Below, in pieces: positions 20,970 through 60,393 of a stretch of DNA of 64,000 nucleotides (positions are counted from its first letter, which is position 1; every line of letters starts with the position of its first letter). Origin of the DNA: Nemertoderma westbladi. Its lineage: Eukaryota; Animalia; Xenacoelomorpha. The stretch lies in NCBI GenBank assembly GCA_032718475.1, contig JAUCBJ010002497.1, positions 67,997-131,996 on the forward strand. The letters are read 5' to 3'. The notes under the pieces were generated by a model that saw only the letters and a list, made by a program, of their open reading frames with translations, was not told the DNA's origin and ran no database searches. The position numbers were made by a program, and so were the translations under genes.

Positions 20970-20980
20970 GTAGGAATATG
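20970..20980 (+). promoter_or_regulatory. Non-tRNA primer-binding site of C, complementary to its own LTR at 19931-19941
   Basis: GTAGGAATATG is the exact reverse complement of CATATTCCTAC. Confidence 0.8.
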
Positions 20981-21777
20981 TTTTACTGAACTACGGTTCG
21001 GTAGGACTAAAGTTATTTGAAAATTCTGTATTTTGAGGTAAAAGTTTATATTTGATTAGCTAAGTGCTAATTTTTTGAAATAAAATTTTGATTTGAACCG
21101 CGTGTAAAATATTTTGGAATTGAATACCGGTGTTTAAAAAGGGTTTAAATACCATATTGTACCGGTACAAAATTTTCGTAAAAGTAAAACTTAACTCTTT
21201 TGTTTTTCAGGATTCAGAGCTCATTTCTAGACTGTAACGAGAGCAAGACCGTGTTTAGCAAGTTTCCGAGATAGATAACTCAACAACTTTGGTTGGGAAA
21301 ATCGCACTTCGTCCGCAACGCTGGAAACGGAAAGGTTCACGTCCGGTTTGTATCTGGGAATCTGTTTTTCTGGAGAATCATTGGAGGGGGTGAGTTCGAA
21401 AAGTTGCATAAATAAGTTAGGCATTACCGTATTAGTTAAAATTATTGTGGGTTCCACTGTCTCAAGTATTTATGCATTCCGTACGATTTCTTTGTTTATT
21501 GCTGAATTAGTCCGTATTATTGTATTTAATTTACCTTTTGATAACGTATATCGTTTCTGATTTATTTGTTATAAAATTGGCCGGTAGGCTAATTTTATTA
21601 TATACTTATTCCGTGACATTTATTTGCTGTAAAATTGGCCGCTAGGCTAATTTTATCCATCTGCTATAAAATCGGCCGGTAGGCTAATTTTATATGACTG
21701 TAATTAATACCGTTTTGATACAAATACGGTAAGTTTGATACTTTGACACTCACTTTACTTGACTTACAACTACCGAA

Positions 21778-24700
21778 ATGAGTGACAAACAAGACTATAC
21801 GAAGAATACACAAACCGACTATGACTCATGTAACGCGGATAAGTCAGAAGCGGAAGAACCACAGGGGAAGACTCGTGAGCCTACCGAACCTACACCGTGC
21901 GCGTCACCAGTACATCCAACGGGAGTACCGGATGCCGTAGTACGAGGCGACGGCAGGACCGAGGATTTTCTAACGGTCCCGCAACCTAGATATAGGGAAA
22001 CGGACATGGTAAGTTCAGTAGGAAGCCAGGAAAGCGTTGTTAGAAGCGTCGGAGGTTACATGGCGCATATTACTAGGAGTATTGGAGAAGGCCAACGCAT
22101 ATTAGACGAGTTGACCGCTCCGATGTCTCGATTCGAGTTCTACACTCTACAGGTGAGAGTACAAAGCAGAGTACATAAGTCCGTAGATAATCTAATTGGT
22201 CTACAAGATCTAGCTAGACAGAGACAGGATATGGACACACAGTTTAGAATCCTCGAGAAATTAATGATCGCTAGAGAGAAACTGATTCAGTTTAAGACGA
22301 CCGTTAGACAGATACAACAGGAACAAGCAGACCAGTTGCTAGGTGAGTCGGTTTCCGACGAGTTATTACAGCCCGAGGAAGAACAGGAACTGTACCGACT
22401 GGATGGACAATTGAAACATCTGACGGATCACTTACGTATGTGCGGCGAAGACGTCGGCGATTTGGAAACCGTGCCGGAATATACGAGGGGAACTTCACCC
22501 GTACAAATCGAATCGGCACCGGAAATACTGGACCAATCGTTAGTGAGTATTCGCAGCGAAATTGGCGAGGTAAGTATAGTGACGTCAGAAATTTCTAGAC
22601 AGCAACAACAGTACCACAGACAACAACGAGAAATGGAAGAACAAACTCAATTGTTAACTGTACAAGCAGCTGTAGAGGAAGAGAAGCTACGCGTTGCAAA
22701 TGTTGCGAGAATTTCTCATCTGCAAGAACAAGCCGAGTTGGAAGCGGCTGAGATGGAAAGGTTGGAGCTAGAAATAGCACAAAGAACAGCAGCAGCGGAG
22801 TTAGCGCAACGAGCGGCAGCAGCCGAGTTGGAACGACAAGCGGCAGCGGCTGAGTTGGAACGACAAGTGGCAGCAGCGGAGTTAGACAAACAAAGGCGAG
22901 TTTCGGAAGCCCGAGCCGAGTTGAAAAAACGACAAATAAAGGCTCAATCAGCTATACGACAAGCGGAGTTCGAGGCGCAACAACAACAGACGGAACAACG
23001 TGAGAAGGAAGTTAAACTTCATTTCGAACTCGAAAGGAAGGCGAGAGAACTAGCCGAAGCCAAGGAAAATCTGGATCTTCTAGCCCGCGATCGATCGATG
23101 AGATCTCGTGACGGACATGATTTGGACCAGATAGAGGTAAGGCACCGTCAAATTCAGGAACGAATGAAGGAAGGAAGTGTAGGGGCACCTGGGCGAGAAA
23201 GACAATTAGTTAAAGACTTATGTCAAAGATTCCCTCAAGTAACTCCTATGTTTGCACCAGTTACGACTAAGGAACCTGTTTCGATTGCGGGTAGTAGTAA
23301 TATTTCTCCTATCCATTGTGCGACGGAACACAGGTTTGTTATTCCGGACAAGTTCATACCGCCAAGAGCAACACCGTCGCCTATTCTGAAAGTCAAGGTA
23401 AGTAACCCACCGATTACCGATCGTAGTAGTTTATTGCCCGGACCTGCACTACTAACGACAAAACAGGTGAGTCCACCTTCGACACCAAAACCCGTTACGC
23501 ACTACACATACCCAATGACGTTTAGGCCTACAAGGCCTTTAGATTCAAACGCTGTCACTCGACCACCGGTTCAGTTTACATCGCAATCTACGACTTCGAG
23601 GAAGACCTGCGAGCCTACCGAACAATGGAGACCAGTGGATACGCGACCGTTTAATCAGTTTACATCGCAATCTACGACTTCGAGGAAGACCTGCGAGCCT
23701 ACCGAACAACGGAGACCAGTGGATACGCGACCGTTTAATCAGTTTACATCGCAATCTACGACTTCGTGGAAGACCTGAGAGCCTACCGAACAATGGAGAC
23801 CAGTGGATACGCGACCGTTTAATCAGTTTACATCGCAATCTACGACTTTGAGGAAGACCTGCGAGCCTACCGAACAACGGAGACCAGTGGATACGCGACC
23901 GTTTAATCAGTTTACATCGCAATCTACGACTTCGAGGAAGACCTGCGAGCCTACCGAACAACGGAGACCAGTGGATACGCGACCGTTTAATCAGTTTACA
24001 TCGCAATCTACGACTTCGAGGAAGACCTGCGAGCCTACCGAACAACGGAGACCAGTGGATGATGTTCCGAAGCGGAACGTTAGAATTCGGACGACGCAAC
24101 GGACACGAGCACGTCGACCACCGTATCCAGGTGACAGTAGTACTTCAAGCGAGTCGGATTACCCGAAACGCGAGGTATTTAGAACAGGAGCGGCCGACGA
24201 ATGTAAACGTGAGCGTTCAGATAATTTATTTATCGATAATCCTCCACAAAATACACCAATACAAAGGGCGTTACAACCAACGGATGCGATCAGTACTCAA
24301 CAATTTGCCGACATTCTGAGACCAGTTGTCAACAAGTTGGCCCAGATCGAGGAACGCTTGGAGGAAGTTCACACCGACAGTTCGAGAAACACCGAATTCG
24401 AACACTCTAGACACCCGAACATTCAGCAAAGACCGACACCTTTGAGGAACACCTCGAATCAAAGAAAAGCGCCAAGAAGAGAGAACATCAACCAGGTTGC
24501 CAACCCAGGACGCGAAACTTTGAACGTTGCCGAGGAAATAGCGAAATTCGCAGCTAGACAAGGACTACCGGTGCAACAACCACCTAAGTTTTCCAGTAAC
24601 TCTAAACATTGGCACACTTTTGTAGACTACATTGAATCTCAGATTGCTGTGTGTGCTTTTACATCGAGAGAAAAATTCAACTACCTGTTACAAACGCTGA

Positions 24701-27396
24701 CGGGAGAACTGAAACGTCTAGCGGAGACTTTTGTCGGTGTACCAGATGCCTTCGAATTAGCGTACGATCGCTTAACATCGATTTACGGAGGCACCGTAAG
24801 TATGGCTAAGTCAGTGATAGAAGAACTCTGTAAGGGGGGGGCTATTACAAAACCCGTTGACTTACTGAAATTGGCTGACGAGATTAAAAACGCCATTACT
24901 ACACTACGCTCAATTGGACAACTTGACTACGCAAACACTCCTACAGTCCTATTGAAAATAATAGGAAGATTGCACCATCGACTTCGTCGGGAGTGGCGAA
25001 AAATCGAATATCAGCGAGAAGAACGAGGTGGATTCTTGAAGTTGGAAGATGTCTACTTATTGATATCCAGAGAGGCAGTAGTGGAGACTCGTTCGAACTA
25101 CACGGACCAACACATCGTAGCAGAAGGAATCACCCTACCGTCATCAAACAGACAGAAACCACCAATGACATCCACAAAGACGGTCACCTACGCTACACCG
25201 ACCGAAACCCGACAATTTTCAGACGGTAGTAAAGTGTCTGCACCTATAGGGACCAAACAGACCAGACAACAACTAACTGCCGACTTCAGCGGTTGCCAAT
25301 ATTGCGAACGGATTGGTAAGCGACATACTAGCCACAACTTAAGGGGATGTCGACTATTCCGTGAATTAAACTCAGAGGAACGACGGCTTCAAATAAGACC
25401 GTTAGATTCTTGTTGGCGGTGTACGCAACATGGACATGTCCGTAAGGACTGCCCAAATACAGACACCTGTCCTTACTGTGGACGCAACCATGACGGTCTG
25501 CGCCACATGGACAGTCATACGCCGACCAAACGCTTCATAAGGGAACACCCGGAAGCTGCAGCAAAATGCAATAGTGCATACAAAACACGCGAATCGAGAA
25601 CAACACCAACATTCGTGACGCATATTAGGGATTGCTTCTCAGAACAATCCGGATCATCAGATGAAGAGTCGGAAGACGACGACGTTTATTTCGGTACTGG
25701 GGACGAACAACCATCGATTGCACTTCTGACGCCTGATCAACTAAAGGGGTTTAGTGTAATTCCCGTTAAGATTACAGGCACAAAGGGGAGCAAAAGGATC
25801 TACGCTATCCTAGATTCAGCCTCATCTCACAGCTACGTAGATGAGAAGGTAGCTGATGTCGTCACAGATCTCAGACAAGGTAAGCACATAAAGTACACTG
25901 TAAGTAGTATGCATGGACAACATGCAATACCAGTGACACGAGTTAAGTTAAACTTGGACACCCTTCTTCCGAAATCGCAACATAGCGAAAAGGAGAGGTC
26001 TTTGTTACCCTTTAAGGATTTGACTTTTGCGGCCACCAAGGACTTTAGTAACCTACTGGGTCCAGTGCCGGAACAATCCCTAGATGACCGTAAGTATTTC
26101 AGACACCTCGGTGTACCTGAATGTCCTGTCAACTATAGGTCGGTAGCAATGCTGATCGGGACGGACCAATTCAACCTACATCAAGTGTGGGAAACCAGAC
26201 CATCGGTAGTCGTAGCGGGAAACGTTTACGCCTGTAGAACTCCGATAGGGTGGTATACTCGAGCGCCTGTGCGCACACTGGATATAAGTGATGAGGAAGA
26301 CGATGTACAAAGTACATGTAGTTTACTAACTACAACTTCGATTCATTCCTTTTCACCTGACATAGACTATACTACACTACGTTCGACAAAACACGACAAC
26401 GTTACAGGTACGACGTGTGTAGCAAATACGATAAGTCACAAAGAGCAGCCAATCCACAAGGTTAGTATAGAGCGTGAGAAGAAGACGAGTCAGGCAGAGG
26501 TTCCATCGACGACAGATGATAACGCCGGAAGGCTTGCGAGTCTATCTACACCAATAACTTTAATGATGCCCGTCGATATCGATGTTGACACATTAAAGAA
26601 TTGTCAAGTGGAACAAGCTGAACTAGACAAAGAGTTAACAGAGAAAACTATCAGGTGGTTAGAACAAGATACAGCAGAACCCGGTAGTTACGAACCGTGT
26701 ATGTCGGAACAAGAGAAACAATCTTTGAAGATCATGGAAGATACTATCTGCCAGACGAAAGACGGACATTATGAGGTAGGGATGCTATGGCGTAACCAAC
26801 GTCCTAAACTTACAAATAACTATCCGCTAGCCTTACGACGCTTACACTCAATACGACAACGTTTATTGAAGGACGAGAAAGCCCATCTGCAGTATAATAC
26901 TCAGATGGAGACGTATTTGACTAAAGGATACGCTATCAGGATGACAAACCCAGAGATTATGACAGACCAGACATACTATTTGCCACATCACTACGTGAGA
27001 CACCCCGACAAACCTGATAAAGTACGCGTAGTTAACGACTGCGCGGCCCTGTTTGAAGGAATGTCTCTCAACAGTGAGTTGATGGATGGACCAAACATGA
27101 ATAATTATCTCATGGGGGTGATTATGCGCTTCCGTCAGCGCCAAGTAGCATTTACTTGTGACGTAGAAGTGATGTTTCACCAAGTGCGAGCGTTAGAGCG
27201 AGACAGAGACAGTTTGAGGTTCCTCTGGTACCCGGATGGAGACTTAAGTCAACCACCGGCGACTTACCAAATGCAAGTTCGCGTTTTCGGTGCCAGGGAC
27301 AGCCCAAACTGCACTATGTACGCCCTAAAACAGACTGCTAGGGATCAGAAACATATGTATGACCCAGAGGTAATCCAGATCGTTACAGAGTTGTGA
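21778..27396 (+). pseudogene. gag-pol: Element C gag-protease-RT (N-terminal part); one frame with a nonsense codon at 23776-23778
   Basis: Coiled-coil N-terminus; BEL-type Cys/His cluster (CQYC..H..C, CWRCTQHGHVRKDC, CPYCGRNH...H); protease ILDSAS; RT motifs YLPHH, KVRVVNDC, SLNSELMDGP, DVEVMFHQV, FGARDSP. Confidence 0.93.
23569..24060 (+). repeat. 84-bp in-frame tandem repeat in the gag of C, about 6 copies
   Basis: Encodes (QFTSQSTTSRKTCEPTEQRRPVDTRPFN)n. Confidence 0.95.
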
Positions 27397-30300
27397 CACA
27401 GTAGAAAGTGCTATAACAGTAACACATCAATTACGGGACTGTTTAGCAGGCGGAGGTTTTAACCTCACTAAGTTTGCCTCAAACAGCACTGAATTGGTAA
27501 ATTCATTCGAAACGACTGAACGTGGGGGTGGGGACATTGACTTAGAGTTCGAACCACTGCCGACGACCAAGGTGTTGGGACTATTTTGGGACCCGAACAC
27601 AGACAACTTTCGAGTGAAAGTAAAACTGGACGCTGAAGGAGATTCTCTGACAAAGAGGTCTTGCTTGTCGAAACTAAGCAGACTGTTCGACCCTTTAGGT
27701 TTCATCAGCCCAATAATACTGCAAGCAAGAATATATATGCGCAGTATTTGGAAAGATGGACTGACATGGGACGAACCGATCTCATCCGAACAAGTGGACT
27801 TATGGAAGACTTGGGAGGCGCAATTATCTTCGCTAGAGGATTATTCCATACCCCGGGTGTACTTTCCATTACAGACGACATTTCCTGACAACTTAGAATT
27901 ACATTGTTTTTCCGACGCCAGTGACAACGGCTTTGGTGTGACAGCGTACTTGCGCAGACAAGTAGACTCAGACGAGTTTGATATTTCGCTCATTACTTCT
28001 AAGGCTAAAACAATGCCTACTAAGTATATGACGACACCACGCGCTGAGCTACAAGCCGCAACTCTGTCAACGACCATTGTAAACCTCATACAGACGGAAC
28101 TACAGTCAAGTTTACAGATATTTTATTGGACTGACGCGACGTTAGTTTTATTTTATATAAACAACGACACACTTGAATTCAAGACATTCGTAGCTAACCG
28201 TCGTGCAGAAATTCTAGACCGTTCAATAAAGGAAGATTGGCGACATTGTCCCGGACCACAAAATCCAGCCGATATTGCGTCACGAGGAATGATGCCTGAG
28301 GAATTCTGTAAACCGGAAAACAAGAAATTTTGGCAACACGGACCACAATTCTTACAAAGAGCAACACAACATTGGCCGCCACTTTATGATAACAAGTTTA
28401 ATACTATTCCTAAGGACGCCGAAATTAAAAAACCAAAGAAAGGTAAAGCGAAGAAAAAGACAACGGCGAAACTTAAGAAGAAACCAAAGGCGAAATGGAA
28501 GAATATAACTCACAAAGTTAGGGCAGGAAGACTTGCGAGCCTTTCTCAACCAGACGTATCGCCAGACGGTCAACCAGACATGTTACCAGACGGTCAACCA
28601 GACGTATCGCCAGACGGTCAACCAGACACGTTACCAGACGGTCAACCAGATGTATCGCCAGACGGTCAACCAGACACGTTATTAGACGATCAACCAGACA
28701 TTTTGCCAGACGTGTCACTAGACGTTTTGCCGGATGTTCCGCGAAACATTTTACCAGACATTAGTAACGTAGCGACACATAGTAAAGCCGCAATTTCCCT
28801 ATTGGAGCGGCCTTCTATTGACAAACTACCAAACTTGACACCCTTGAGTAACCATAAGTACATTGAAACCTCATGTATTACAGATGTGGGTAGTACCTAC
28901 GCTAATGTAAATACAGGTGTTACTTTACGCTCAAGAGACATACCAAACTTACAACCTACGGTGAGACCTGGGATTAATATCGGCAGAAAAACAAATTTAC
29001 CGAAACCCAGTGATCCCATAGAGTTAAAACCACCATTAGGGATCGACGCACAAAGTACTGACAATCAAGGTAAGAAGACGAAGAAGGACAAATTACTTGT
29101 AGACCCGGACGGATCAACAGTCAACAAGGGAATACCTACCGGCGGACTCGTGGGCCCATCTAGTAAAACAAAACCTTCCAAATTCTCCATTGACTTACCT
29201 GATGACGTCACAAATACTTACGTCGACCGTATTGTAAACCTAACAGATTCTTGGACCAACGCGTGCCGAAAATTAGCGTGGATTGTACGTTTTGTACAGT
29301 ACGTTAAAGGCAAACGCGACTTTACACGTTGACTCACATTGACTGAGATTGACAGATGTGAAATTAAATTAATTTGCCATTATCAATTGCGATATTTCGC
29401 GCGCGAATTCACATCTATAAGTCAAGGTCAACCAATCAAGTCGTCACCAATATTGAGTTGGAGTCCGATTATTTATAATGGCTTAATTTGTCATAAATCT
29501 CGGCTTCAAAAATTGACTTTAATACTGGTTTTAGGTACCCAATAATAATACCGCAACATCACGAATTACAACGTGCAATGATACTGGACACACATTTACA
29601 TCTGAAACACGCTGGAAGACACCACTGTCTTTCCTACTTACGTACAAGATTTGTATTAATTAGACCCAGTAAAGCGTTAAGTTCAGTGACGCGTATGTGT
29701 ATTATTTGTAAAAAGGTACATTCTAGAATAAGTACCCAAGAAATGAGTGAACTTCCACAAGCACGACTACAGGCATTCAGACCACCTTTCACAGAGACTG
29801 GAATTGACTGCTTTGGTCCCATACATACGAAACGTGGACGTATACTAGTGAAACGCTGGGGACTGATTTTCACATGCATGTCCAGTAGGGCAGTTCATAT
29901 TGAACGTGTGATGGATCTTTCCACCAACGCCTTTATACTAGCATTGCGGCGATTTATCGCTAGACGCGGACTAGTAAAATGCTTGTACTCAGATCAAGGT
30001 ACAAACTTTGTTGGTGCTCGAAATGAAATTGCTAGAGCCTTTAAGAAATTAGATCATGATCAAATCTCAAACGAACTACGTCCTTACAAGATTGTTTGGA
30101 AGTTTAATCCTCCAGATAGTCCATGGAGAGGCGGAGTCTGGGAGAGATTGATTAGATCTATAAAAACAGCCATGGCAAAAGTAATTCCAGTAAACCACAT
30201 CTTGACAGACGACCAACTGACAACATTGTTTGTTGAAATCGAGGCAATACTAAATACTAGACCAATAGTATTAGTACCCGATGACAAACAATCCCAGTTT

Positions 30301-30729
30301 GCTTTAACACCGGCACACCTGCTTATGCAGGCACCGACCACATTAACGCCTATTTCTATTCCAATAGAAAGCGATAGCTACGGTAGAAAAGCGTGGAAAA
30401 TCACGCAACTACTGGCTAACAAATTCTGGGAAATATGGCAAAATCACTATTTGCCCTCTATTTCTGCCAGAACTACCTGGTACAACAAAACTCGCGCTTT
30501 AAGAGTGGGAGATCATGTGCTGTTGGCAGAAGTGAATCTAAAAAAACGCTTCTGGATAACAGGTGTAATTTTAGACACACATCCATCTATGGATGGAGTG
30601 ATAAGAACTGTGACTGTACGGACAATTGACGGTCGTACAGTAGACAGACCGACACAACGTCTCGTACTTCTTGAAGAGAAGCGAAACAAGTCTGGAGATT
30701 ACAAGTCTCCAACAAATGTTAGTAAATAG
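27390..30729 (+). pseudogene. pol: Element C RT C-terminus, RNase H and DDE integrase
   Basis: GGFNLTKFASN, KVLGLFWD, FDPLGFISP, LHCFSDAS, PRAELQAA, WTDA, NPADIASRG; integrase HLHLKHAG...CIIC, GIDCFGP, SDQGTNF, GGVWERLI. Stop at 29330-29332 and frameshift near 29520. Confidence 0.93.
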
Positions 30730-31388
30730 TAAGGAGTTTACAAATAGATTTCCACGTACCTGTACACCGTAGTAAGGACAGCGGTAGAATTCCATTGTCT
30801 TTATATGTGAACATTGATGGTAGTACCCTTATGTGTCACATAGGAGCGGGATTTGTAGGTATAAGAAATGGAATTCTACTTGGAACTCACAATATTGAGA
30901 CATTTTCGAAATTTTAGACAATCCATTTGGATTTGAAAAATTTTAAAATTTTCTCCAGTGAATAGATTTCAGGGTACAGTCGGGTGGATCTTAAAATTAG
31001 AGAAACAAGAAAGGAAGACTCGCGAGCCTTTCTTAAATTTTAATTAAATTTTACACGGTCTTGTTTCAATAAGTTACGTCGAATAATAGACTTCCCTATA
31101 TTTATTACTAACTCTTGATTGCTTATTTTCTGATAATAGTTTGGGATCAAAAAGTGAGTATTTTAGACTCACAGCCAGTTTAGCCCAAATTCGTTTTTAT
31201 TTCGGCAAAAAATTTTAGATAAGAAGCAGCGTGTCATTAAAGAAACTCTAGATCTTAGGCTATGGGTAGGAGGTTAGAGCGTTGTCGAGCCAAAAGGGCA
31301 GACGAAAACTCTCACATCTCCTCACAACTAACAATAAACTCTGTTGTATTCCCTCTAGTAGTATGATTATGTAACCATACCTCTAATA

Positions 31389-32160
31389 ATGGCGAAGGGG
31401 ATACAAGGAGAGCCGAGATGGGGATATGATATCCAAGAGGAAGCAGCAGCGCCATTCGAACGATTTGGAACTAAGGATTACACTATATTTGGAATAAAGG
31501 ATTTATCAGAAAGTATAGCGAAACTCGCAAAGACCAAATATGACTCAAATGTATTAAAGAGAAGGCAAAATGCGTTAAATGAAAAAATCGAAAGTTTACG
31601 TAAAACCTTCAATGAACTTTACCCGTACGACGCTTTATGTGATACGGGAGATATTAGCAAAGATCCCGATACCGAAATTAGTCGTTTGTATCATACTATG
31701 CAATACCTAAAGGCACATGAACCTATGCCCGCGGTACGCGATGAATTCGATGGAATGCATCTTTACAGACGAACTCGAGGGGACGATAGAGAAACAAAGG
31801 AAGCATTTTCAGTTTATAAACTTTATTATCAATGCGGTGCTTGTATGCGCGAACAACGAAATGCGATTTCGATGCGTTTAAATAAGGAAAATCCCGAACC
31901 GATATTGGTGAGGTGTTCGAACCATCAACAACTACGCTACCAGGAAGGAGGGTATCCTTTATCGAATCCATATCATTCATTCGCTATGACTGGACCAAAG
32001 GCGGGAGAAATTGTCGTTTACCCACCTAAGGTTGTTGAACCCGATGTATTCGAACTTACGCTGGACGAGGCGACTCAGTCAACCCGCGAAAAGAAAGAAG
32101 CTCTTAGCCTATACAGAGCCTACAAGGCTTTCGAGAAAGGCGAGATGGAAGAATGGGGCG
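31389..32160 (+). CDS. Element C accessory ORF3, N-terminal part (interrupted by element B)
   Basis: Removing B and one GGGCG TSD gives ...EEWGG RLASLPYHWTSHDQTSAKE MTPEVF..., in frame with the 963-aa ORF. Confidence 0.88.
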
Positions 32161-33373
32161 TGTAAAAGCCTTTGCTGAATTGCCCCGTTTTTTATATTAT
32201 CTTTTACATTAAAATACTCTGTAGTTGATTTAATAAGTGTAAGAGACCGTATTATTGCTGTATCGGTGTTTTTAGAGGATCTAAGACCTATTTCCTCCGT
32301 ATGTGTACTGTGAAAGGCATATTTTATGATTCTATGGCAATTCGTGACGCAAAGGGGTGATAGCTACTCTTGAACAGTAGTTACTATGACTACGGTTAAC
32401 AGCTGACATTCATACGTGTTGATTTCCTTTGTTCTACGGCGTCTCTCAGTTCAGTCAGCCAATGAGAGCGTTTTTGTGGCTCCTTGTACAGAAAATTTCC
32501 GAGAAATGACGCAATGCCTATGTGCAGTGTTTACATTCAGTCTTGAGCCAAAGAAAGAACGGCTTGGAAGTATTTTGTGCTGTACTGCTTTTTAGTCGTA
32601 CACTAGTAGGTTTAATTATAAAGGGCATATATCCTTTAACAAACTGACTACTTGAATATCTCATGCCTATATCTCATTGCTGACATACCGGTACTGACTT
32701 GTTGTTTTATACTGCTATTTGCTGTCAGTTCTTCATAATATGGTTGATGAATAATTATATTTGGAATAACGATAAATAACCCCGCAACCCAATATTCTTG
32801 ATATACCTAAGGTAAGAGAGAAAGGTTACCAATAACGATTGTGACTTATGTTAAAGTGGTTTGAAGTGAATCTAATGTTATTTGATAGACCCTACATGAG
32901 TCAGCCTGTGTTCCTTTTATATGTGACTAAAATCATTGAAGATTGGCAGATTAGTGTGCAGTATTGTGCAGCATAGTGTATGAGTGAGTCTGTTAAAGAA
33001 GCAATTCCTAAAGAATGCGCCATATATGTGAATTAATTAAGCCATATCGTTGTGAGTAGTTTAAGTCATAACTCTGTTTATGTAGATAAAGCGCCACGTC
33101 CTAAAGGAACTGTTAATATTACCGAAGGTGAATAATATTGTCAGAGATTATATAGTACTGTCAGTCGAATAATACATTAGGCTTACATAGCAATAAAAAT
33201 TAAACCGTCGAACCCAATCTCCCGGGAATATCCAGCGGGTGAATGGTCGCGCACGGATTGGTTTCGACTAGTGTAGTGAATCAAATACTTGTCATAGACT
33301 AAAAAGCGATTTATTATCTAGAAGACATTCTAATTTGGCGGGTTAAACTGCCAAAGGTCTGAAAGCGCGAACA
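32161..33373 (+). repeat. 5' LTR of element B (1213 bp)
   Basis: Matches 45062-46278. Confidence 0.97.
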
Positions 33374-33385
33374 TTAAAGGATATA
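33374..33385 (+). promoter_or_regulatory. Non-tRNA primer-binding site of B, complementary to its own LTR at 32628-32639
   Basis: TTAAAGGATATA is the exact reverse complement of TATATCCTTTAA. Confidence 0.85.
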
Positions 33386-36300
33386 GCTTCTTTATTGCAG
33401 TAAGCAATAAAGTCGAAAGTACCGGTCGACCGGTAACCAGTAGGCCTGACTGCCTGATCATCCGGACCGGTACCTACTTCCGTATAAGTACAGCAGTATT
33501 ATTCGATTTGATTATATATGCCGGTAGGTCTTAATAATTAATCGGGGACGCCTGGTTTTTATTGGGATTTTACTTAGGCCTATTTCTGTCAGTTTTATTT
33601 GTTTGTAGGCCAGTATTGAACAGAAGGCGTGTAAACCTGATCAGATTGTACAGACAATTTGTAGGCTGAGCTGTTGTCTGATTGCTGTTGAGTCCGAACG
33701 AATTGCAGTGTGTGTAGAGCACTTGTCCGATTAAGTACGATTAGGAAGTAGGGGCAGCCACGCTGTAAGGTAAACCCCCAACTAAAGAATAAGTCGCACT
33801 ACTGGGTTAGAGCGCATACTCCCTAATCATTTCGGAGTCTGCATGTCCTGTAGTTTATTTAGGCTTGAGAGTAGTCTGCCATCGTTTAGTCTGTACTTTG
33901 TTTGTGTAAGTCTGTACGGGTAGCGTATAATTTTATTTAGATAACTTGTAGGCTGGATAGTTGTCTGGCTGTTATTAGGTCTGAACGGATTGCCGCGTGT
34001 GTAGATCATCTGTCCGATTAAGTACGATTAGGCAGTAGGGGCAGCGAACGCTGTAAGGTAATCCCCCAACTAAAGAATAAGTCGCACTACTGGGTTAGAG
34101 CGCATACTCCCTAATCATTTCGGAGTCTGCATATACCGTAGTTTGTTTAGGCTTGATAGTAGTCGGTCAGTGTTCGGTCTGTATTTTGTTTGAGTAGTGT
34201 GTACGCGTAGCGTAATATTTATTATTCAGAGTTTATGCGATTATTCGCAACATTCAAGTCCCCAAGTTTGTTCCTACAGTAATTGTGTTTGTTATACATA
34301 CCGCTATAGTTAAATTAACCTCGGTACTACACGGGCTGCTCGGCGTAGGTAAAGACTGGTGATTTTGTGCATCGGTCACTCCAGCAGATGCCGTGGTTCT
34401 TTTAGCTGTTCAAGTATATTTAACTACTGATTATTTGTTGTACAAGTACTCGTACCTAATCTAGGGTTTAGTGTACCGTACTTTCCGAAGTAATTATTGT
34501 AGGCATTATATTTGTGTTGTAAAGTGGTTGATAGGCACATTCGATTAGCTCTATTAACTTCTAGGTAGGAACACTCCGTGATACATAACGTAGAACCTAT
34601 AGCGATACGGCTATAGGTCGTCAGGCGGTGGTATTTTCCTATCTAGACAACGCAGTGTATTTACTACTACTTATTATTTCAAATACCGTAGTACCCTGTC
34701 CGCTGTAATAATCAGATTTCTAACCCTTTGTTAGGCTGGTTTGTAGACTTCTTGTAAAATTACCCTAAAAATTCGTATTTTGCGTTTTTGTAAATTTTTG
34801 TGTTTATTTAGAGATTGTAATCTCAACCCGAATTGTACGTAATTTGTAGTATTAAGTAACTTAGGTAAATTAGTATTATTTGTTTTAGTGTCCTGTACGT
34901 AACACTTCACTGAAAGCGCACAGCTTTGTGTAGTGATTACTCCCCAGAAATAATAACATTTATTTCAAACATTGACAAAACCCATTAAAACGGGTATATA
35001 TAAATTATAAATCAAATCTAACGATTTATAAATAGTAGGCCTACCATATAACAATTAGGTCTCAATATCAGTTGGATTACTGCTCAAATAACGGTAATAA
35101 AGTAAGTAAAGTAACAAAGTAACCCTAAAGTAACAGAAATTCAATTATTTGAAATAATTGATATACCGGTATTTACGATAGGCCTATTATCTTTATTTCT
35201 ATAAATCTAGGCTGAAATTATACCGGTACTTGTAATTAATTCTATTTCAGAATTATATATCCTACAAACTGTAAGCTGTATACCGGTATTCCGATAGGCC
35301 TATTATATATTTATATATATTTGTGCTAAAATTATACCGGTATTCTGTGATAAACCTAGTCTGTAATAATACTTATATAGTTATATATACTATAAGTATA
35401 CCGGTATTCTAATATATTATATATATATCACGCTACACTGAGTAGCAGTAACGGTAATTAATTACTAGGCTATCAGTTAATACTGAGTTACTAGACTTGC
35501 TCAGACTGTAATACAGCAGTAGACATTCAACTGTACACACAAACATGTCTGACGCAAAGCAGAACCTGTCAGACAGTCTACTAGATACAACGGAGAGTGA
35601 AGCGACAGCAGAGAAACCGCATAAGAGGGATGCCATTGATATCTATCTGTCAGACTATCAGCGTTTTGTGGGAGATGAAGAGTTGAGGAGAAGGCTAGAG
35701 GGACTTAGCCCTAATAGCGAAGGAGCCAAACTTGTGTTAGATGCGATTGATGTGGATAGATTAGCGGCGAACCAAGCTAAATTCGATGAACAACTCCGCA
35801 TCGCTAGAGAAAGGGAAGAACAAGTAAAGAAAAAACGCATAGAAGACAGAAAGAAAGCAGCAGTGGTAGCTGCAGAAGCAGAAAGAAAGGCGGCAGCGGC
35901 CAAGGCAAAGGCGGCAGAGGTAGCGGCCAAGGCAAAAGCAGCAGAGGCAGCGGCAGAGGCAAAAGCGGCAGAGGCAGAGGCAGAGGCAGCGGCAGAGGCA
36001 AAAGTGGCAGAAGCAGAACGGAAAGCGGCTGAAGAAACCACCCAATTAGAATTGGAAAACATTCAGGAGAATCAAGACTGCATAAATAAACAGTTAACAG
36101 CTAGTAATATGCAGATGATGAATCGATCTACTCCTAAACGACAAGGTTATACATCATCCGAGGAAGGCGATACCACCGACACTGAAGGCGGAGTAAATCG
36201 ATCCCGCTTAAGCAGACGTAAAAGAACATTCCACCGACCGAAATTGCCTGATTTGCCTCCAGCTGTTAGAAGGCAACTAAATAACAACAACTTAGAGAGT

Positions 36301-38709
36301 ACAGAACCCACAGACCAAATAATTACAATAGAAAGACTCCCTACTATAGTAGATGAGCCTGAAATAATTAGGCCTGTTCTTGAAATCACCCCTTCGGTGA
36401 TAGACATACCTGTGCTCCCTGAAACTACCTCTAAATTCCCTCTGCATAGCACTAAGCTACCTGTGCCCCGCAGAACTGCCCAGGAGACAGTTCAGGTCCT
36501 GGACCCCGAGCGAAATATTCACAATTTGTCGCCCGTTGTCCCTCGTCCGCCCGCTACGACGTTGGCGGATCCCGTTTCGGCGGTTGATTGGGTAGACGAG
36601 AGACGGCGGGGGATGGATATCCTGCTCGGGCAGATGCAGGAGACTGTCCAGCAATTCAAGGGCACAGTAAGGGAAAGTAGGCTAGAGTTGCAAGAAGTGC
36701 AGCAAAGTATCGCGCTTGAACGCGATAAATTAGTAAACACCCAAAAGGGTATACCACCACCCTCTGTAACAATGTGTCAACCTGTTAGGTCTGAAGTATT
36801 GCATGCGCAAGGTGTGGAGCCTACACGCATATATACTGCTAGCGAAGTAGAAACTCCTATAGTGAACCCTATTAAGGGTAATTATAGACCTGTTGATAAT
36901 GACATTCCCTATAGACCTGATCATAATCCGAGAAATTTATATACCGATAACTCGATATTAAATAACACGATGGCCCAAGAAAGTTTTACGCGTCAAATGG
37001 CTAGAACCGAAGCCCGGCAAGCGGTGAAGGTGGGAGAGATAGTCAAATTCAATGGAGATGAGATGAAATGGTTACCTTTTAATTAATATTACAAAGATAA
37101 CATACAGAACTCTGTACTATCTAATGGAGAAAAACTTAGATACCTCATCGAGTGCTTGGAAGGATCTCCCAAGTTAATGGCGTTAAAGTTTATTGGACAT
37201 CCAGACGGATTAAGACAAGTTTGGGACACGCTAAACATCAGGTATGGTAATAGGAATAATATCGCTAAGTATTTATATGCAAAATTAGTAGCGCCCAGAA
37301 AGTTCATCAGCAGCGGGATAATAGAGTTTTCCGATGAGATTCAAGAGATCTGTAGACAATTAGATTGGTTAGGTAAGTCTCATGAATACCAAAGTTCTAT
37401 GGTCATTGGAGCTGTGGCTTCTACTTTACCGAAAGGTGGGGTAGGCACACGCTGGGATAAGAAAGTACTTTATATGATGGAACAACAATGACGAGACCCT
37501 ACCATGGCTGATCTCATGTCATTCTTAGATAGAGAAGTGAAATTACAGCTCCTAAGGCAGTCCAGAGAGAAGACATTGGAAAACAAGGTAAGTGAGAAAC
37601 CCGTTTCTAGGAGAAGGGTAATACCAGTATGTTATACCGACGACGGTGAAAGCCAAACTTCTCAAGGAGAGGACAGCGGGAAAGACACTGACAGAGCTTA
37701 TGTCAATAAAATGCCTAAAGATCAGGTAAGTAAATCCAAGTCTCGACCCAATGACAGAAGGGAACCGGTACAAAAAACCCCTCCTACGTCTCCTAAAAGA
37801 ATTCAGGTGAGAAAGCCCGAGGAAAGAACAAGTGTGCACCACATAGCACAGGTTAAAGTAAGTAACATCAAGCCCAAATGTGTGCTGTGCGACGGGCCCC
37901 ACCGTTTAAATGCGTGTGATAAATTCCTGAGGAAATCACTAAAGGATAGACGTGAAGTCATGTGGGATAAGCGGTTGTGTTATAATTGCCTCAGACGAGG
38001 ACACCAACGGCGAACCTGTAACTCCGACGCAAGGTGTGCAAAGTGCGGCGCAAAACATCATATCTTGTTGCACACGGAATTCGAACGAAACAGCCCGAGT
38101 CAGGTAAGTGAGTCCGAACTACATGTCCAATTCAGTGATGTGAACGACACTGATCAATCAGAGATGGAAGGATTCTATACGGACGAGTTCTCCGACCAAA
38201 ACGAATCCTGTTACCTAATAAACACCACCGCAGTGTATCGAGCACTCGTGTATGAGAAAGACACAGACAGCGACCTTACCTTAACTACTTCCGATCAACA
38301 ACCATCTTGGAAAGCGCCAACTTCCAATATAGGAATCCGAGAATTTCCTGTAGTCCAGTTACGGGTCCACGGACCTCAGAAGAGCTATATAGTGCACGCC
38401 CTCCTGGACTCCGGTAGCACAGGAACATTCATCGATAGGGAACTAGCCGAAGTCATCTTTGCTGGACAACCCAAGTTCCGAACCAAGCTAAACATGTCAG
38501 GGATCATGCAGGTTTGGAATTCTACTGTAGCTGCCGACTATTATATAGGTGAGTTGTCCACCCCCCAGGACGAACTAGGAGAACATAGCATCAGGTCAGT
38601 GAAAATGGTGGCTATAAAGAACTTCGCTACTACTCAAGCAGACCTTTATAATTGGGACGAGGATGAGAGCATCCAACATCTTAACATACCTCGATTCCAG
38701 ACTGATTAC

Positions 38710-41122
38710 TAGGGTGGAGTGAAAAAAAAATTTTTCTTTATTTTTAAGGGAAGCACTATTTTTCTGATGCCAAATCGGTCTAAACTATCTTTGCAAAAAA
38801 AAATTTTTGATTTCGAAAAATTCTAAGCGGGCCTCACGACACTTGAAAATTTCAAATTTTTGAAAAGGCAATGCCAGTTTTGAAAATCCCAGATATTTTG
38901 TATTTTTGATAAAGGTAAGGGAAGATGCAAATATTTAATGTCAAATAGGTAGGAAACAAAAACAAAATGTGAAATTGTGATTTTTATATAAATCTACCCC
39001 AGCCTCATGGCCATTAAAATTTTGCAAAATTTGCCAAATTTCACCCTTAAAATACAGCAAACCTACTTTGTAGTCTCTATAGTTGAAATCGATTTACTAC
39101 TGGGGTTTGGAGTTCTTCCTGAGTGAAAACCAAGTCCCCTGATTTGATTACTACTATATTTTAATACTAGAAACCCAGCTAGCTGGCTGTGAATTTACCT
39201 TTGGATCAAATTCCCAATAAGTATATTATAAACAACAGTACTGTAGGTATAGGAAGAAGGATAATTCTAAATTACGAAAACACTAGTAAAACAGTAAAGC
39301 AATAGAAAAACAGATGAGAAACACTGTAATGCACCAGGAAAAAGTAAAAATATTGATCAACAGGAAATTTAATACATGTATTACACTGAATTGGTATTCT
39401 TAAATGTACTCCTCGCATAGCACACCATTAAGTAATCTCCGTAAAACATAGGGACAACTATAAACTGTCCAGAAAACAGTGAAAACATGATTGGCATTAA
39501 ATAGCATTAAATTTTACCTAATATACTGCTAAAAAATAAGTTGACAGTGTCTAATACTACACAGAAACCATTGTTGCCCGGCAACCAAGGAACAGTAACC
39601 AATCAGCATGCATTTCAACAGTTTTACTGGTCAGCCGGTAGAGGCACATTAATGGTGTATTCTGGTATTAGTGTATTCCAGTATTCAAGTATTGTTAGTG
39701 TTGGATCTTGTCATCTGCTAAATGTTGAACAGTTAAAGTGCAGATGTTGCGGTATTTAATATTAAGACAGCAAAAGGGCCACAGTTAGGTCCTACCTACA
39801 GAGATACCGTAGTGAAGTGGCATACCAGTGTGGCTAGAAGCGCGGATGCAAGATCTAGAACACATCACACATGATGTTCTAGTCAGTTCGGTTTTCTGGT
39901 ATGAATGGTATCCTTAATAATAAATACCACAACTTCTGCACTTCAACTGCCAACATTTAGCAGATGAATTGATCTAACACTAACAATACTGGAATACACT
40001 ATGTAATTCCAGAATACAGCAACACAGGTACTACTGGCTGACCAGTAAAACAAGGATAGTGCTGAAATGCATGCTGATTGATTTCTTCTTTCACCTAGTA
40101 TTATTAGCAGCATATCAAGCAAACAGTTGAGGCGACCCGAAGGCTCCTCTTTCGATAGATGCTACCGAGGGTAGGGGTGGGCACTACTATTATCCCAAGA
40201 TTTGCTCCTAGTTATTTAACTGGTACTCAATTTATCGACCCCAGTGGATGAAAGGCGACTGAGTGGACCCTGGTGGGGCTGAACCTACAACCAATCGATT
40301 GCAGGCCTGGTGCTCAGCCAATTGAGCTACCCCGCTTTCTAGCGAAATATAGGTAAAATTTCACAGTTGTCCAGAGGGTTTATAGTGTTTTCCCTATGTT
40401 TTACGGAGATTACTTAACGTGTGCTATGCGAGGAGTACATTTAAGATTGCCAATTCAGTGTAATCGATGTATTAAATTTCCTGTTGATCAATAATTGTAA
40501 TGTTTTTCATATGTTTTTCTAGTGCTTTACTGTTTTACTAGTGTTTTCCTAATTTAGAATTATCCTTCTTCCTAGACCTAGGCCTACTGTTGTTTATAAT
40601 ATACTTTATTGGGAATTTGATCCAAAGGCAAATTCACAGCCAGCTAGCTGGGTTTCTAGTATTGAAATATAGTTGTGATCAAATCAGGGGACTTGGTTTT
40701 CACTCAGGAAGAACTCCAAATCACAGTAAATCGATTTCAACTATAGAGACTACGAAGTAGGTTTGCTGTATTTCTAGGGCTAAATTTGGCAAATTTTGCA
40801 AAATTCTAAACGCCATGAGGCTGGCAGGGCTGGGGTAGATTTATATGAAAATCACAATTTCACATTTTATGTTTGTTTCCAACCTATTTGACATTAAATA
40901 TTTGCATCTTCCTTAACTTTTATCAAAAATACAAAATATCTAAGAAATTCAAAACTGGCAGTGCCATCCCAAAAATTTGAAATTTTCAAGTGTCGTGAGG
41001 CCCGCTTAGAATTTTTCAAAATCAAAAATTTTTTTTTGCAATGTTAGTTTAGACCGATTTGGCATCAGAAAAATAGTGCTTCCCTTAAAAATAAAGAAAA
41101 TTTTTTTTTTCACTCCACCCTA
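38710..41122. mobile_element. Non-autonomous hAT-type (hATm-like) foldback element
   Basis: Termini TAGGGTGGAGTGAAAA and TTTTCACTCCACCCTA; 8-bp TSD CTGATTAC (38702-38709, 41123-41130); arms of about 1 kb, nearly palindromic around ~39850. Confidence 0.93.
40117..40336 (-). mobile_element. tRNA-derived SINE with Nin/Deu-like central domain
   Basis: Head GCGGGGTAGCTCAATTGG...GGTTCAGCCCC; core ACTCAG..CCTTTCATCC...GGGGTCGATAAATTGAGTACCAG; absent from the opposite arm of the foldback. Confidence 0.8.
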
Positions 41123-43697
41123 CTGATTACCCTGGAGTGCAAATACTCATCGGCCAAAACGCGCATGAGGCGCTGGAGACATTAGAGAAACGGCCTGCTC
41201 AACCGCAGCCCCTACAGACCTATGCGGTAAGAACTAGAGTAGGTTGGTACCTTACTGGACCTTCCCGTAGAACGCTCAGGGAAAGACTGCTTCAAGATCG
41301 CGTCTGCCAGGTGAGTGAATGGGAAGATGATACTAGTGAGGGAGACGACCCAACTGAGGGAACACCACACTCCTCAGATAATGACAATCTTAGCTCCAAT
41401 GTAGATCAATGGAGATATTGCCCCAAGAAGTTTAATCCAACGGACATCGCTTCCAGAGGAGCAACTCCTCAAGAACTGACAGATACTATAGACCGGTTAG
41501 GTGAACCCGACTTCCTGAGTAAGGAGAATGAATGGCCTCCCCATCTTACTCCGACTGAGATTAGACCAGCCAAGGGAGCGGAGAAAGTCGAACCTGAAAC
41601 CCGGACGGGTGGATCGGAGTTATTTGAACCCGGGATAGATCTGTCGGTATTACATGTTGCCAGGGACGACGCCGTGGATCTGGGCCTCCCCTCCGCGAGT
41701 GGATCCTTCATGAAGATCAGAGAGAGCGATTGGAGCTCTGGAACATCAGACGTCTCGCAGGGACTCTCACCTCTCCTGCAGAGAGCGACGGACCACTATA
41801 GCTCCTGGAATCGGCTTTGTGACGCCGTCATATACTTTGAGCGATGTTTCTATCGTCACTATTCCAGGACGAAGAGGAAACCTGGAATTGTATTCAGGAT
41901 GCAGCGACTCAATCACCCAGTCGGTCGTTTGTGTTTATCGGAAGGGAATGGAGGACTCTCCGGAAACTGTGGAAGGCAAGATTCTCTTCCCACGACCACC
42001 TCCCTAATCCTTCAAACATCTAGGGACTCCATAACGTAACAACATACGGAGTGGGTGTGTGACTCTATTATTTTATATTATTTTATTATTTTTATATTTA
42101 TGTATGTATTACTATGTAATTCTATTATAATCGTTTTCTTTAATTTTATTCAGTAGAATGTTATTTTAGCGATTATTTAGTAGATTAGTGCAATATATAT
42201 TCGCGTTTATTACTTAATTACGTATATATTATATTTAATGCGACGGCAAGAAATAATTCTTTTCCTTCTTCCTTACTGTCCGTATTACATTACAAATACG
42301 TAACTACAGTAAGATGAAATGTCCGTACTTATTAAAGTACGATAAAGCCACTACTATATTCAAGTATTATTGGTAGGCAGAGTATTAGGAATGCAAAGTT
42401 CAGATCCTCGTGTCTCGGCTAAACCAAGCTCTGGGTAGACCTTGGAAACGACTTGCCTCTTCACACTGACATTGCTTCGTGCGATATTGCTCTCATACCG
42501 TATATTAAATAATACATATAGTAGCGTGATGTCCCTTTAACAGTAGCGTATAACGCAAAATAAATCTGTTAAACCCTTTGACCATCTGTAATTCTAGTCG
42601 ATTAAGATATCGCGGCACCCACCGATATACTTGAAAGACAAATTCTAGAATCAGTGGTTAACGTCCCCAGACAAGTTCTGGAATAAATCGGTGCCCATCT
42701 CAAATATTAATTAATTAATATTTGCAAAATCTAATAAATCAAAATCTGTAAAATTCAGATCCTTCAATAATTCTAGTCAATTAAGATATCGTAGTATTTA
42801 CCGATATTCTTAAAAAGACAATTGTCATAGAATTAAGGATCTTGTGTCCCCAGACATGTTCTGGAATCCAAATATGTCCATTTAATTATCAAATAATAAA
42901 ATTTCAGGGAATCAATTTAAATTCATGCCTTTTAATGAATTTAATAAATTGCCATTTTTACGCAATTTATAAAGTTCCCAAAATTCCATTAATTAATAGA
43001 TCAAGGGAGCGGAGATTTATCTTAGCATGCGTATGAGTGTACGAAAGTCTCCCAAACATAGTCAATAGCCGATAAAATTCATAAAGTCATGTATAAAACA
43101 GAACATTGACTATTAAAGAATTACTATTAAATAACATCCCAGATCTGTATGCATTGGAATCACCCTAATTCTACCGCTAGCTTTGCATAATGTCACCATA
43201 GCAACAACCACGCTAGAATTAGAATTGAGTTAAAAGAACAATAGAAAGCTTGTCCCATTGAATAGCATAGGGAATAAATAGCGCACTACTAGTATCCAAG
43301 GATACATAATAATACAGTGACATTCTGGAAGGCATTGACTAACGGACAAGTGACCCGAGTGTGTGTAATTTGTGACAAGTTGTGTGTGTGGTACTTGTGA
43401 GCTTATAGGCGAATGTTACTACTAAGGTGTGTTTACAGTAGCAAGTCGCAATCGTAAAGTAACCTAACTCTCCAAGGAAAACCTGAAGTACATCTAAGCC
43501 TTTGGGACGGACAGTTGAGTGACTTGTGCCGGTTGTCGTTGTCGTTGTGCGGCTACGTCGTTGGCGAAAGTACAGCGGCGACGACACATCGGCGCTGAGG
43601 ATCTCGTACTGTCCGGGGGTTAATTGGAGTAGGCAGCGACGCCCGCTCGCCTAAATGTGGACTCATTATAATATGGACAAACTCATATATAGCAGAT

Positions 43698-45061: not shown

Positions 45062-46278
45062 TGTAAAAGCCTTTGCTGAATTGCCCCGTTTTTTATATTA
45101 TCTTTTACATTAAAATACTCTGTAGTTGATTTAATAAGTGTAAGAGACCGTATTATTGCTGTATCGGTGTTTTTAGAGGATCTAAGACCTATTTCCTCCG
45201 TATGTGTACTGTGAAAGGCATATTTTATGATTCTATGGCAATTCGTGACGCAAAGGGGTGATAGCTACTCTTGAACAGTAGTTACTATGACTACGGTTAA
45301 CAGCTGACATTCATACGTGTTGATTTCCTTTGTTCTACGGCGTCTCTCAGTTCAGTCAGCCAATGAGAGCGTTTTTGTGGCTCCTTGTACAGAAAATTTC
45401 CGAGAAATGACGCAATGCCTATGTGCAGTGTTTACATTCAGTCTTGAGCCAAAGAAAGAACGGCTTGGAAGTATTTTGTGCTGTACTGCTTTTTAGTCGT
45501 ACACTAGTAGGTTTAATTATAAAGGGCATATATCCTTTAACAAACTGACTACTTGAATATCTCATGCCTATATCTCATTGCTGACATACCGGTACTGACT
45601 TGTTGTTTTATACTGCTATTTGCTGTCAGTTCTTCATAATATGGTTGATGAATAATTATATTTGGAATAACGATAAATAACCCCGCAACCCAATATTCTT
45701 GATATACCTAAGGTAAGAGAGAAAGAAAGGTTACCAATAACGATTGTGACTTATGTTAAAGTGGTTTGAAGTGAATCTAATGTTATTTGATAGACCCTAC
45801 ATGAGTCAGCCTGTGTTCCTTTTATATGTGACTAAAATCATTGAAGATTGGCAGATTAGTGTGCAGTATTGTGCAGCATAGTGTATGCGTGAGTCTGTTA
45901 AAGAAGCAATTCCTAAAGAATGCGCCATATATGTGAATTAATTAAGCCATATCGTTGTGAGTAGTTTAAGTCATAACTCTGTTTATGTAGATAAAGCGCC
46001 ACGTCCTAAAGGAACTGTTAATATTACCGAAGGTGAATAATATTGTCAGAGATTATATAGTACTGTCAGTCGAATAATACATTAGGCTTACATAGCAATA
46101 AAAATTAAACCGTCGAACCCAATCTCCCGGGAATATCCAGCGGGTGAATGGTCGCGCACGGATTGGTTTCGACTAGTGTAGTGAATCAAATACTTGTCAT
46201 AGACTAAAAAGCGATTTATTATCTAGAAGACATTCTAATTTGGCGGGTTAAACTGCCAAAGGTCTGAAAGCGCGAACA
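45062..46278 (+). repeat. 3' LTR of element B (1217 bp)
   Basis: Matches 32161-33373. Confidence 0.97.
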
Positions 46279-46283
46279 GGGCG

Positions 46284-59950: not shown

Positions 59951-60393
59951 AGTCACTACTACTAACTGTAGGGACATTTCGCTACTATTAATACCTTAAA
60001 ATTTTGAATTGTTGATTATTATTTATATGCCTCAAATTTGCAGAATACCAACAAAGACATGGAAATGATAGACCTAGCTATGGTGATTCACGCGGGAGAG
60101 GTTGTACAGATATTATATTCGCTCTACTGTTTCTAGTCGGGGTCCTATCGTATTTCGGTGTTATATTCTTTGCTTACGCCGTTGGAAATCCAATTAGACA
60201 GTTCTATCCAACTAATTCAGAGGTTTGCCATAAATACATATAATATGCGAATGATAAAAAGATCATAACCATGTAAAGTAGGCCTACTTTGCAACTGGCT
60301 TTAATGCTACATAAGCCTATTTTGAACTGTAACATGCGCTTTTGACTCTGGTTTATTGTTTTGGTTGGAATAATATAACCTCGTCACGTTGAC

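Follow-up and report, generated by a model that had tools for sequence, protein, structure and literature searches.

How would a retrotransposon that carries no recognizable binding site for a tRNA prime its reverse transcription, and what would keep a primer of twelve nucleotides on its template? This question is raised by a 64,000-nt stretch of the Nemertoderma westbladi genome (contig JAUCBJ010002497.1, positions 67,997 to 131,996 of the forward strand; hereafter the window), in which positions 13871-57403 form a three-level nest of long terminal repeat (LTR) elements in animal-type DNA, with element B inside element C and C inside element A. By their sequences, A, B and C are BEL/Pao LTR retrotransposons; all have LTRs, a polypurine tract (PPT) and a 5-bp target-site duplication (GGGCG for B, CTTTT for A). 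The 5' LTR of B (32161-33373, plus strand) runs from TG to CA and is 99.6% identical to the 3' LTR (45062-46278, plus strand), which repeats all LTR strands discussed below and is not followed by a primer-binding site (PBS). Element A lies on the minus strand (5' LTR 56266-57403, 3' LTR 14997-13871). Its LTR is about 80% identical to that of B across the distal part and 46% identical in U3, while the LTRs of C (19133-20969 and 50165-52001; 1837 nt, ends TAT...ATA and not TG...CA) are unrelated to both. The answer proposed here, whose chances we judge to be evenly balanced, is that four RNA helices, H1 to H4, act as a clamp that keeps a 5' RNA piece of about 100 nt on the template beside the PBS, where it would serve as primer after a predicted cut.

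The putative primer of B is a 12-nt LTR segment (32628-32639, plus strand; 57001-56990 in A) complementary to the PBS, which lies directly 3' of the LTR (33374-33385, plus strand; 56265-56254 in A). All three elements share this layout, the self-complementary PBS measuring 12 nt in A and B and 11 nt in C and its partner lying in the middle of the LTR. Between A and B, two-sided changes affect four of the 12 pairs of the primer:PBS duplex and none is broken. The duplex was also the top helix of a blind A/B scan (score 20 versus 12 for the best of 100 shuffles), and its energy alone amounts to -11.4 to -13.7 kcal/mol. A tRNA-type PBS was not seen in A, B or C: there is no TGG start, and the sites differ among the elements and match the respective LTR, a comparison that did not include host tRNAs. 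Nor does any of the three carry the 18-nt PBS for host tRNA-Arg or tRNA-Gly named by the International Committee on Taxonomy of Viruses (ICTV). In B, the primer segment lies 734 nt before the PBS; the roughly 30 nt in front of the segment form pairs with the distal LTR.

These 30 nt supply the 5' strands of three helices, all read on the plus strand of B. H1 joins 32587-32597 to 33297-33307 (A 57042-57033/56341-56332), H2 joins 32599-32606 to 33268-33275 (A 57030-57024/56370-56364) and H3 joins 32609-32617 to 33198-33206 (A 57020-57011/56441-56432). The 3' strands of H3, H2 and H1 and the H4 hairpin (33208-33267) make up a 3' domain at 33198-33307. An earlier note on this DNA had listed these strands and described the whole as a pseudoknot; the B coordinates proved to be as it gave them, the counterparts are present in A, and the topology holds, since the primer lies inside H3 and the PBS lies 3' of H1. 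H1 comprises ten pairs with four two-sided changes between A and B, plus one additional pair in B, H2 seven pairs with one such change, and H3 nine pairs with three two-sided and two G-U changes. Among the 12 positions of H4, two changed on both sides and one to G-U; the strands are in place as proposed, but a pyrimidine mismatch, common to A and B, had gone unflagged. Over all 38 positions, 24 are the same, ten show two-sided and three one-sided G-U changes, and one is unpaired, i.e., 37 of 38 pairs are kept, just as had been claimed for these helices despite the divergence of the elements. Note that the registers of H1 and H3 were set by hand from the junction ends owing to indels, and that an ungapped scan of the A/B sequence alignment recovers only primer:PBS, H2 and part of H4. 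The stems vary more than the loops, with identity of 2/9 in the H3 3' strand and 7/11 in the H1 3' strand as opposed to 33/36 in the H4 interior.

The geometry can be read directly from the two sequences: the linkers between H2, H3 and H4 measure 2, 1 and 0 nt in B and 3, 1 and 0 nt in A, and H1 closes the resulting three-way junction. Folding predicts H4 as well; it gives H1 a pair probability of about 1 in B and 0.14-0.92 in A, and H2 one above 0.85 in both. All six one-sided changes in H3, H4, a further helix H5 and a hairpin in U5 yield G-U on the sense strand and A-C on the antisense strand, which points to sense RNA as the paired molecule. We state with confidence that H1-H4 are real, selected pairings.

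Binding energies are specific to each element. A 35-nt 5' block binds its own 3' domain with -17.7 (B) and -19.6 (A) kcal/mol, but with only -2.6 and -1.4 kcal/mol when crossed to the domain of the other element. None of 500 shuffles in either element matched the own-pair energy, and the block was the best of 199 (B) and 184 (A) LTR windows; the 3' domain for this test was picked from the claimed helices. A blind test that allowed 3-column shifts yielded five covarying, co-located stems, whereas 200 shuffles averaged 1.0 and never exceeded 4; the five were H1, H3, the primer duplex and two probable chance stems. When the primer was left out, four stems remained, a count reached by 5 of 200 shuffles and one of five real control regions, and their summed energy of -33.8 beat all 200 shuffles (best -30.0).

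Several further structures flank the PBS. The bulge of H4 contains TCGCGC (33247-33252, plus strand), a possible partner of GCGCGA (33365-33370), three bases ahead of the PBS. This pairing, predicted by folding, is unique in the region and contributes -9.4 kcal/mol, release from H4 costing 0.2-0.7 (<1); we regard it as somewhat probable. Folding also predicts a U5 hairpin (33334-33355, plus strand) 18 nt before the PBS, with two G-U-compatible changes, and a hairpin after the PBS (33390-33412, plus strand). The segment 33308-33373 is identical at 58 of 66 positions. A 30-nt block (33091-33120, plus strand) coincides with a peak of contig depth in four of four runs and had no match in the metagenome or viral contigs searched. 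The invariance previously claimed for TCGCGC/GCGCGA, for the post-PBS stem (with loops that differ between A and B) and for the 30-nt block was borne out, and hence none of them shows covariation. When the 5' block is absent, an alternative helix (33254-33258 with 33357-33361) lengthens the TCGCGC/GCGCGA pairing; its four A/B changes are all kept by G-U, and three H4 pairs are in competition with it, which may indicate a switch. Within the large loop, H5 (32712-32730 with 32941-32961, plus strand) is predicted in both A and B with 15 common pairs of probability above 0.4 and one two-sided change. A splice-donor-like AAG/GTAAG (32810-32818, plus strand), a candidate for a donor only, is common to both.

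Public contigs reveal a high-copy A/B-type family whose conservation stops one base after the primer, even in copies that share U3 with B; a hypervariable stretch (32641-32693, plus strand) begins there. In X1, contig depth is about 289,000 at 32634-32637 but 13,000 at 32642-32645, and the bin 32640-32693, about 15-fold below its left neighbour in X1, is the lowest LTR bin in X1, X3 and X6. Loose contig ends occur at 32640 in four of four runs; X6, which we guess to be RNA, contains no splice joint. Strand-transfer junctions are error-prone, and the end of conservation at 32640 likely marks the cut, or the template end and strand-transfer point.

Where transcription begins is suggested by a CCAAT box (32459-32463, plus strand) common to A and B and about 165 nt before the primer: its position would put the start near 32520-32560, and B has TCAGT at 32537. 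Element C possesses three CCAAT boxes and a TATA motif about 375 nt before its primer. Since A, B and C all have promoter-type motifs well ahead of the primer, the A/B primer is probably internal to the transcript. The earlier note had arrived at the same view because paired strands lie 5' of the primer. That argument is not compelling, as the 3' LTR copy contains the 5' strands too and could supply them for pairing; the conclusion itself is strengthened by the promoter motifs and by related loci, in 14 of 20 of which the primer is split by a GT-AG intron and can thus not be a plain 5' end.

These loci come from a set of 88 BEL/Pao loci. Inspection covered 29 of them that carry repeats, and the test was run on 20 whose LTR end and PBS could be read. 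Besides the 14 with a 10-15 nt complement across an intron (L072, L076, L068, L086, L081, L084, L024, L027, L021, L006, L008, L019, L026 and L040), one has a contiguous 11-mer, one a weak 8-mer and four have none. Taken together with A, B and C, a self-complementary PBS of at least 10 nt is found in 18 of 23 LTRs versus 8 of 494 crossed pairs. The intron-split primers have only 3-9 bases before the intron and, judging from this arrangement, are very probably internal. Most of them end in AC, followed by C. Tandem duplication after the primer was considered as a general footprint and rejected (4/14 families versus 2.85 expected, P 0.31); three striking tandem arrays in this position (L072, L040, L024) were picked out post hoc. 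The LTRs of A/B and C had no real match in the 88 loci, viral contigs contained no BEL/Pao loci, and no further copies of the L081/L084 or L087 families were found in their assemblies. L081-L088 are BEL/Pao elements in records filed as bacterial assemblies, probably host DNA contamination.

A clamp-like strand recurs in some of these elements. In C, a clamp of about 45 nt runs directly into the 11-nt primer (19886-19941 in total, primer 19931-19941, plus strand; PBS 20970-20980) and forms a helix with 20119-20161 (plus strand) of -40.8 kcal/mol, equalled by none of 200 shuffles and one of 117 control windows. The stretch before the primer pairs with U5 in L081 and L084, with 0 and 1 of 200 shuffles as good, and both carry AATAAA directly after the primer. 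L087 ranked first of 37 in a co-folding screen but reached only z -1.5 in a uniform duplex test; on the folding models it probably shares the design. Pairing of the pre-primer stretch with U5 extends almost to the last bases of the LTR in all three (L081:1330-1780, L084:1310-1870, L087:6260-6420). The distance from clamp strand to primer is 10 nt in B, 9 nt in A and 0 nt in C, and the order clamp, primer, clamp partner, PBS constitutes a pseudoknot in every clamp case. A first screen confined to the last 190 nt of the LTR missed C (rank 103/322) and placed B at rank 5/197. The clamp is a recurring option, not a rule, in self-priming BEL/Pao elements.

According to the clamp proposal, transcription would start near 32520-32560, and the primer segment at 32628-32639 would pair with the PBS at 33374-33385 in a 12-bp A/U-rich duplex that, at -11.5 kcal/mol, would be weak alone. 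H1-H3 would add about 28 bp and keep the 5' fragment bound after the cut. In retroviruses, extra contacts between tRNA and U5 strengthen primer binding. The TCGCGC/GCGCGA pairing is predicted by folding to draw H4 to within 3 nt of the primer 3' end. The cut would fall at 32639/32640 and, by analogy with Tf1, would probably be made by reverse transcriptase (RT) RNase H. No RT or integrase match was found in B (Pfam, tblastn) and no RT region in A and B (tblastn), so the RT enzyme would act in trans for both. The 5' fragment, held by about 40 bp and with its 3'-OH at the PBS, would then prime the minus strand, and the new template 5' end at 32640 would be the strand-transfer point. It had previously been suggested that the fold positions a nuclease or is itself catalytic. 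Positioning of a nuclease fits best, while catalysis has little in its favour: A and B lack an Rfam match and a hammerhead core, small ribozymes yield a cyclic phosphate, and there are self-priming relatives with a simple helix or no helix.

A number of observations speak against the clamp proposal. The A/B fold is based on two independent sequences. RNAalifold on sequence-only A/B alignments fails to recover H1-H4, the unconstrained probability of H3/H4 is 0 in B and 0.37/0.47 in A (about 0.57/0.54 and about 1, respectively, when the middle is held unpaired), and whole-region folding gives z = -3.2 in B but -0.9 in A. In the uniform duplex test z was -1.7 for B (10/200 shuffles) and -1.9 for A (7/200), which can be explained by the inability of this test to form the junction. 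Matching alleles at 32588 and 32596, predicted beforehand from the 3'-strand alleles, were absent among the public-contig rows; these stem almost only from near-B contigs. Single bases at loose ends would allow such partners, but carry no linkage. TCGCGC/GCGCGA is invariant between A and B and thus without covariation, and a mere clamp does not account for the near-invariant H4 loops and the 30-nt block. The drop in conservation after 32640 would also result from a lack of constraint. A TATAAA in B (32617-32622), which A lacks there, would place the start near 32647. Start site, transcript and cut are predictions, and the idea that a BEL/Pao RNase H would cut within an internal RNA duplex is drawn by analogy. 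Twelve of 18 tested elements show no clamp, so that it is not needed for self-priming, and on an RT tree of C and 20 loci the clamp label requires two changes, its clustering not going beyond that of shuffles (151/500).

The same clamp might serve another primer donor, namely the 3' LTR copy, the second RNA of a dimer or a short LTR-only transcript, with H1-H3 pairing in trans or circularising the RNA and the 3'-OH arising by cutting or by 3'-5' trimming to the duplex. We consider this unlikely, though worth bearing in mind: every 5' strand, like the primer, occurs in both LTRs; the 5' block, taken as a molecule of its own, still binds well to the 3' domain; and most related loci have a polyadenylation-type hexamer 0-100 nt after the primer. 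An additional open reading frame (ORF) of C (31362-32160 plus 46279-49234, split by the insertion of B), which encodes CCHC knuckles, contains a faint EXD2-like stretch (expectation value, E, 0.59), and DEDDy ORFs are reported from bdelloid LTR elements in the accessible part of PMC5408684. This exonuclease hint is, however, unconfirmed, with none of the 88 loci giving a significant match to the ORF. As a candidate exonuclease the ORF was rejected (E 0.59, no Pfam domain, predicted local distance difference test score of 33, no homologues in the part searched of 1.84 billion representatives). Another donor also leaves unexplained why variability starts exactly after the primer, and in B it would require the removal of 550-730 nt of structured RNA.

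If priming instead followed Tf1 exactly, transcription would start at the primer itself (32628), and the 5' strands of H1-H3 would be U3 sequence at the RNA 3' end that pairs with U5 and circularises the genome for strand transfer. Tf1 and Tj1 prime with their first bases, end-to-end pairing exists in Ty1, and the cut predicted at 32639/32640 would be the same, in keeping with the drop in contig depth. We nevertheless take this to be improbable. A and B share no TATA or CCAAT motif at a fitting distance from 32628, the C clamp runs straight into its primer while the promoter motifs of C lie about 375 nt upstream, and 14 relatives hold only 3-9 primer bases before the intron.

The fold may also be real but function in packaging, dimerisation or export, or suppress polyadenylation in the 5' LTR, its proximity to the primer being incidental. 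Elements that are not autonomous rely on signals in cis; A and B have four GCGC palindromes in common and, in both, pairing of the leader with an A-rich hexamer (33190-33197) is feasible (-8.5/-9.9 kcal/mol); and most relatives self-prime without a clamp. Such a role is quite improbable, given that A, B, C, L081 and L084 all have a paired strand immediately 5' to the primer, and that in A/B this strand is the best window of the whole LTR.

Very doubtful, too, is a hydrolytic ribozyme, in which the three-way-junction, double-pseudoknot fold would cut after 32639 and leave a 3'-OH, the 5' product staying clamped as primer. Varying stems with near-invariant loops (H4 interior 33/36; 33308-33373 58/66), the tightness of the three-way junction and a pair of pseudoknots close to the scissile bond would suit catalysis, as would the lack of an RT region of their own in A and B, but the invariant loops fit a protein-binding site equally well. 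The comparison with known RNA families that the earlier note had called for gave no match: Rfam 15 returned no hits at E<=1 over 44 kb and three at E 1.6-5.6, far below the gathering score, although the 570-nt insert could hide a split core. The hammerhead core CUGANGA is absent from A and B and occurs as one isolated match in C. The product end left by small nucleolytic ribozymes is a 2',3'-cyclic phosphate and not a 3'-OH, as far as the accessible part of PMC6765202 goes. Moreover, A, B and C have different bases near the cut, whose 3' side is hypervariable; C, L081 and L084 have the same primer layout without this domain; and self-priming in other BEL/Pao elements gets by on a simple helix or on no helix at all. 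Look-alikes of the group I intron R/S motifs were rejected, being in the wrong order or not common to A. Were the invariant core catalytic after all, it would represent a ribozyme class with unusual 3'-OH chemistry and an RNA-only replacement for tRNA priming.

That the helices are chance matches, which two sequences, hand-set H1 and H3 registers and the four-stem counts in one of five control regions and 5 of 200 shuffles might suggest, has next to no probability in view of the collapse of crossed binding, the presence of H1 and H2 in both independent folds, the summed energy without the primer and the junction linkers of 0-3 nt.

The coding regions of the nest differ among the elements. C encodes the gag-pol domains DUF1759, Peptidase_A17 and DUF5641 (Pfam), and relatives of its RT were found; the matches of A are limited to gag (DUF1759, Pfam), and those of B to gag, protease and an RNase H tail resembling C and homologues (tblastn). 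In the stretch 35512-42039 of B, the RNase H tail comes after gag and protease, and there is an insert of about 2.4 kb that has inverted repeats of about 790 nt (38696-41136) and is possibly a DNA transposon. The leader of B (33760-34196) contains two copies of about 150 nt, 288 nt apart, that are common to A. The gag-pol of C (21763-30729) is broken into four ORF pieces by a stop near 23778, a frame change within RT near 27374-27396 and a gap near 29332-29497, and includes 84-nt and 24-nt tandem repeats. C further has a hairpin with a UACG loop after the PBS and, in its LTR, a tRNA-like stretch with A and B boxes (19262-19330) in which ARAGORN detects no tRNA. A separate RT-bearing element (RVT_1), probably of the non-LTR type, is located at 60374-62564.

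If the clamp proposal is true, it provides a concrete initiation complex for BEL/Pao elements, whose replication is described by the ICTV as poorly understood and tRNA-primed. Self-priming would then include, beyond a 5'-terminal 11-mer, an internal primer tethered to the template by its 5' body; the clamp would explain how a weak 12-bp duplex survives the cut, and the elements would escape dependence on host tRNAs. A and B offer a natural swap control.

In the literature searched by listing, we found no paper on BEL/Pao self-priming or on this fold, subscription papers, Repbase reports and supplements lying outside this scope; the accessible parts of PMC3118150 and PMC554778 contain no passage on priming. 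Caenorhabditis elegans Cer7, a BEL/Pao element, is reported to supply its own primer as a tRNA-like segment near its 3' end; this is a separate segment and not an LTR segment clamped to U5. Belpaoviridae are described with an 18-nt PBS for host tRNA-Arg or tRNA-Gly and LTRs of 0.2-1.2 kb (ICTV, PMC8742986). A, B and C resemble them in DUF1759, Peptidase_A17, DUF5641, LTRs, PPT and 5-bp duplications, but differ in their self-complementary PBS of 11-12 nt and, in the case of C, in an LTR of 1837 nt, which exceeds that range. Ribozymes of retroelements (hammerhead in Penelope and retrozymes, HDV-like in R2 and L1Tc, twister) likewise consist of structured, partly pseudoknotted terminal-repeat RNA adjoining a processing site; in the accessible parts of the sources they leave a cyclic phosphate and make no RT primers, and A/B have neither an Rfam match nor a hammerhead core.

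Parallels also exist in retroviruses and Ty1, where the 5' body of the primer is paired with a part of the LTR that precedes the PBS, and the PBS is flanked by hairpins. The same holds for A/B, with the difference that the primer body is element-encoded, co-evolves with its partner strands and has no tRNA fold (no ARAGORN hits). Retroviral and Ty1 priming also features a U5-IR stem, a structure named in PMC3601003. There is also a functional likeness to Tf1, Tf2 and Tj1, which self-prime with a 5'-terminal primer (accessible parts of PMC7175516, PMC4600332 and PMC5341516); in Tf1, RNA structures allow the pairing and RNase H cuts after base 11 (PMC7175516, same part). There as here, the element pairs 11-12 nt of its LTR RNA with a PBS adjoining the LTR, RNA structure supports the duplex and a cut is needed. 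In A/B, by contrast, the primer is likely internal, and cut and enzyme are predictions. The PBS complementary to about 11 nt of the own LTR, which characterises the Tf1/sushi group, is present in A, B and C (12, 12 and 11 nt); Tf1, Tf2 and Tj1 are Ty3/gypsy chromoviruses, whereas A, B and C have BEL/Pao domains and hence not a chromovirus pol. The A/B system thus works like Tf1, but outside the Tf1/sushi group.

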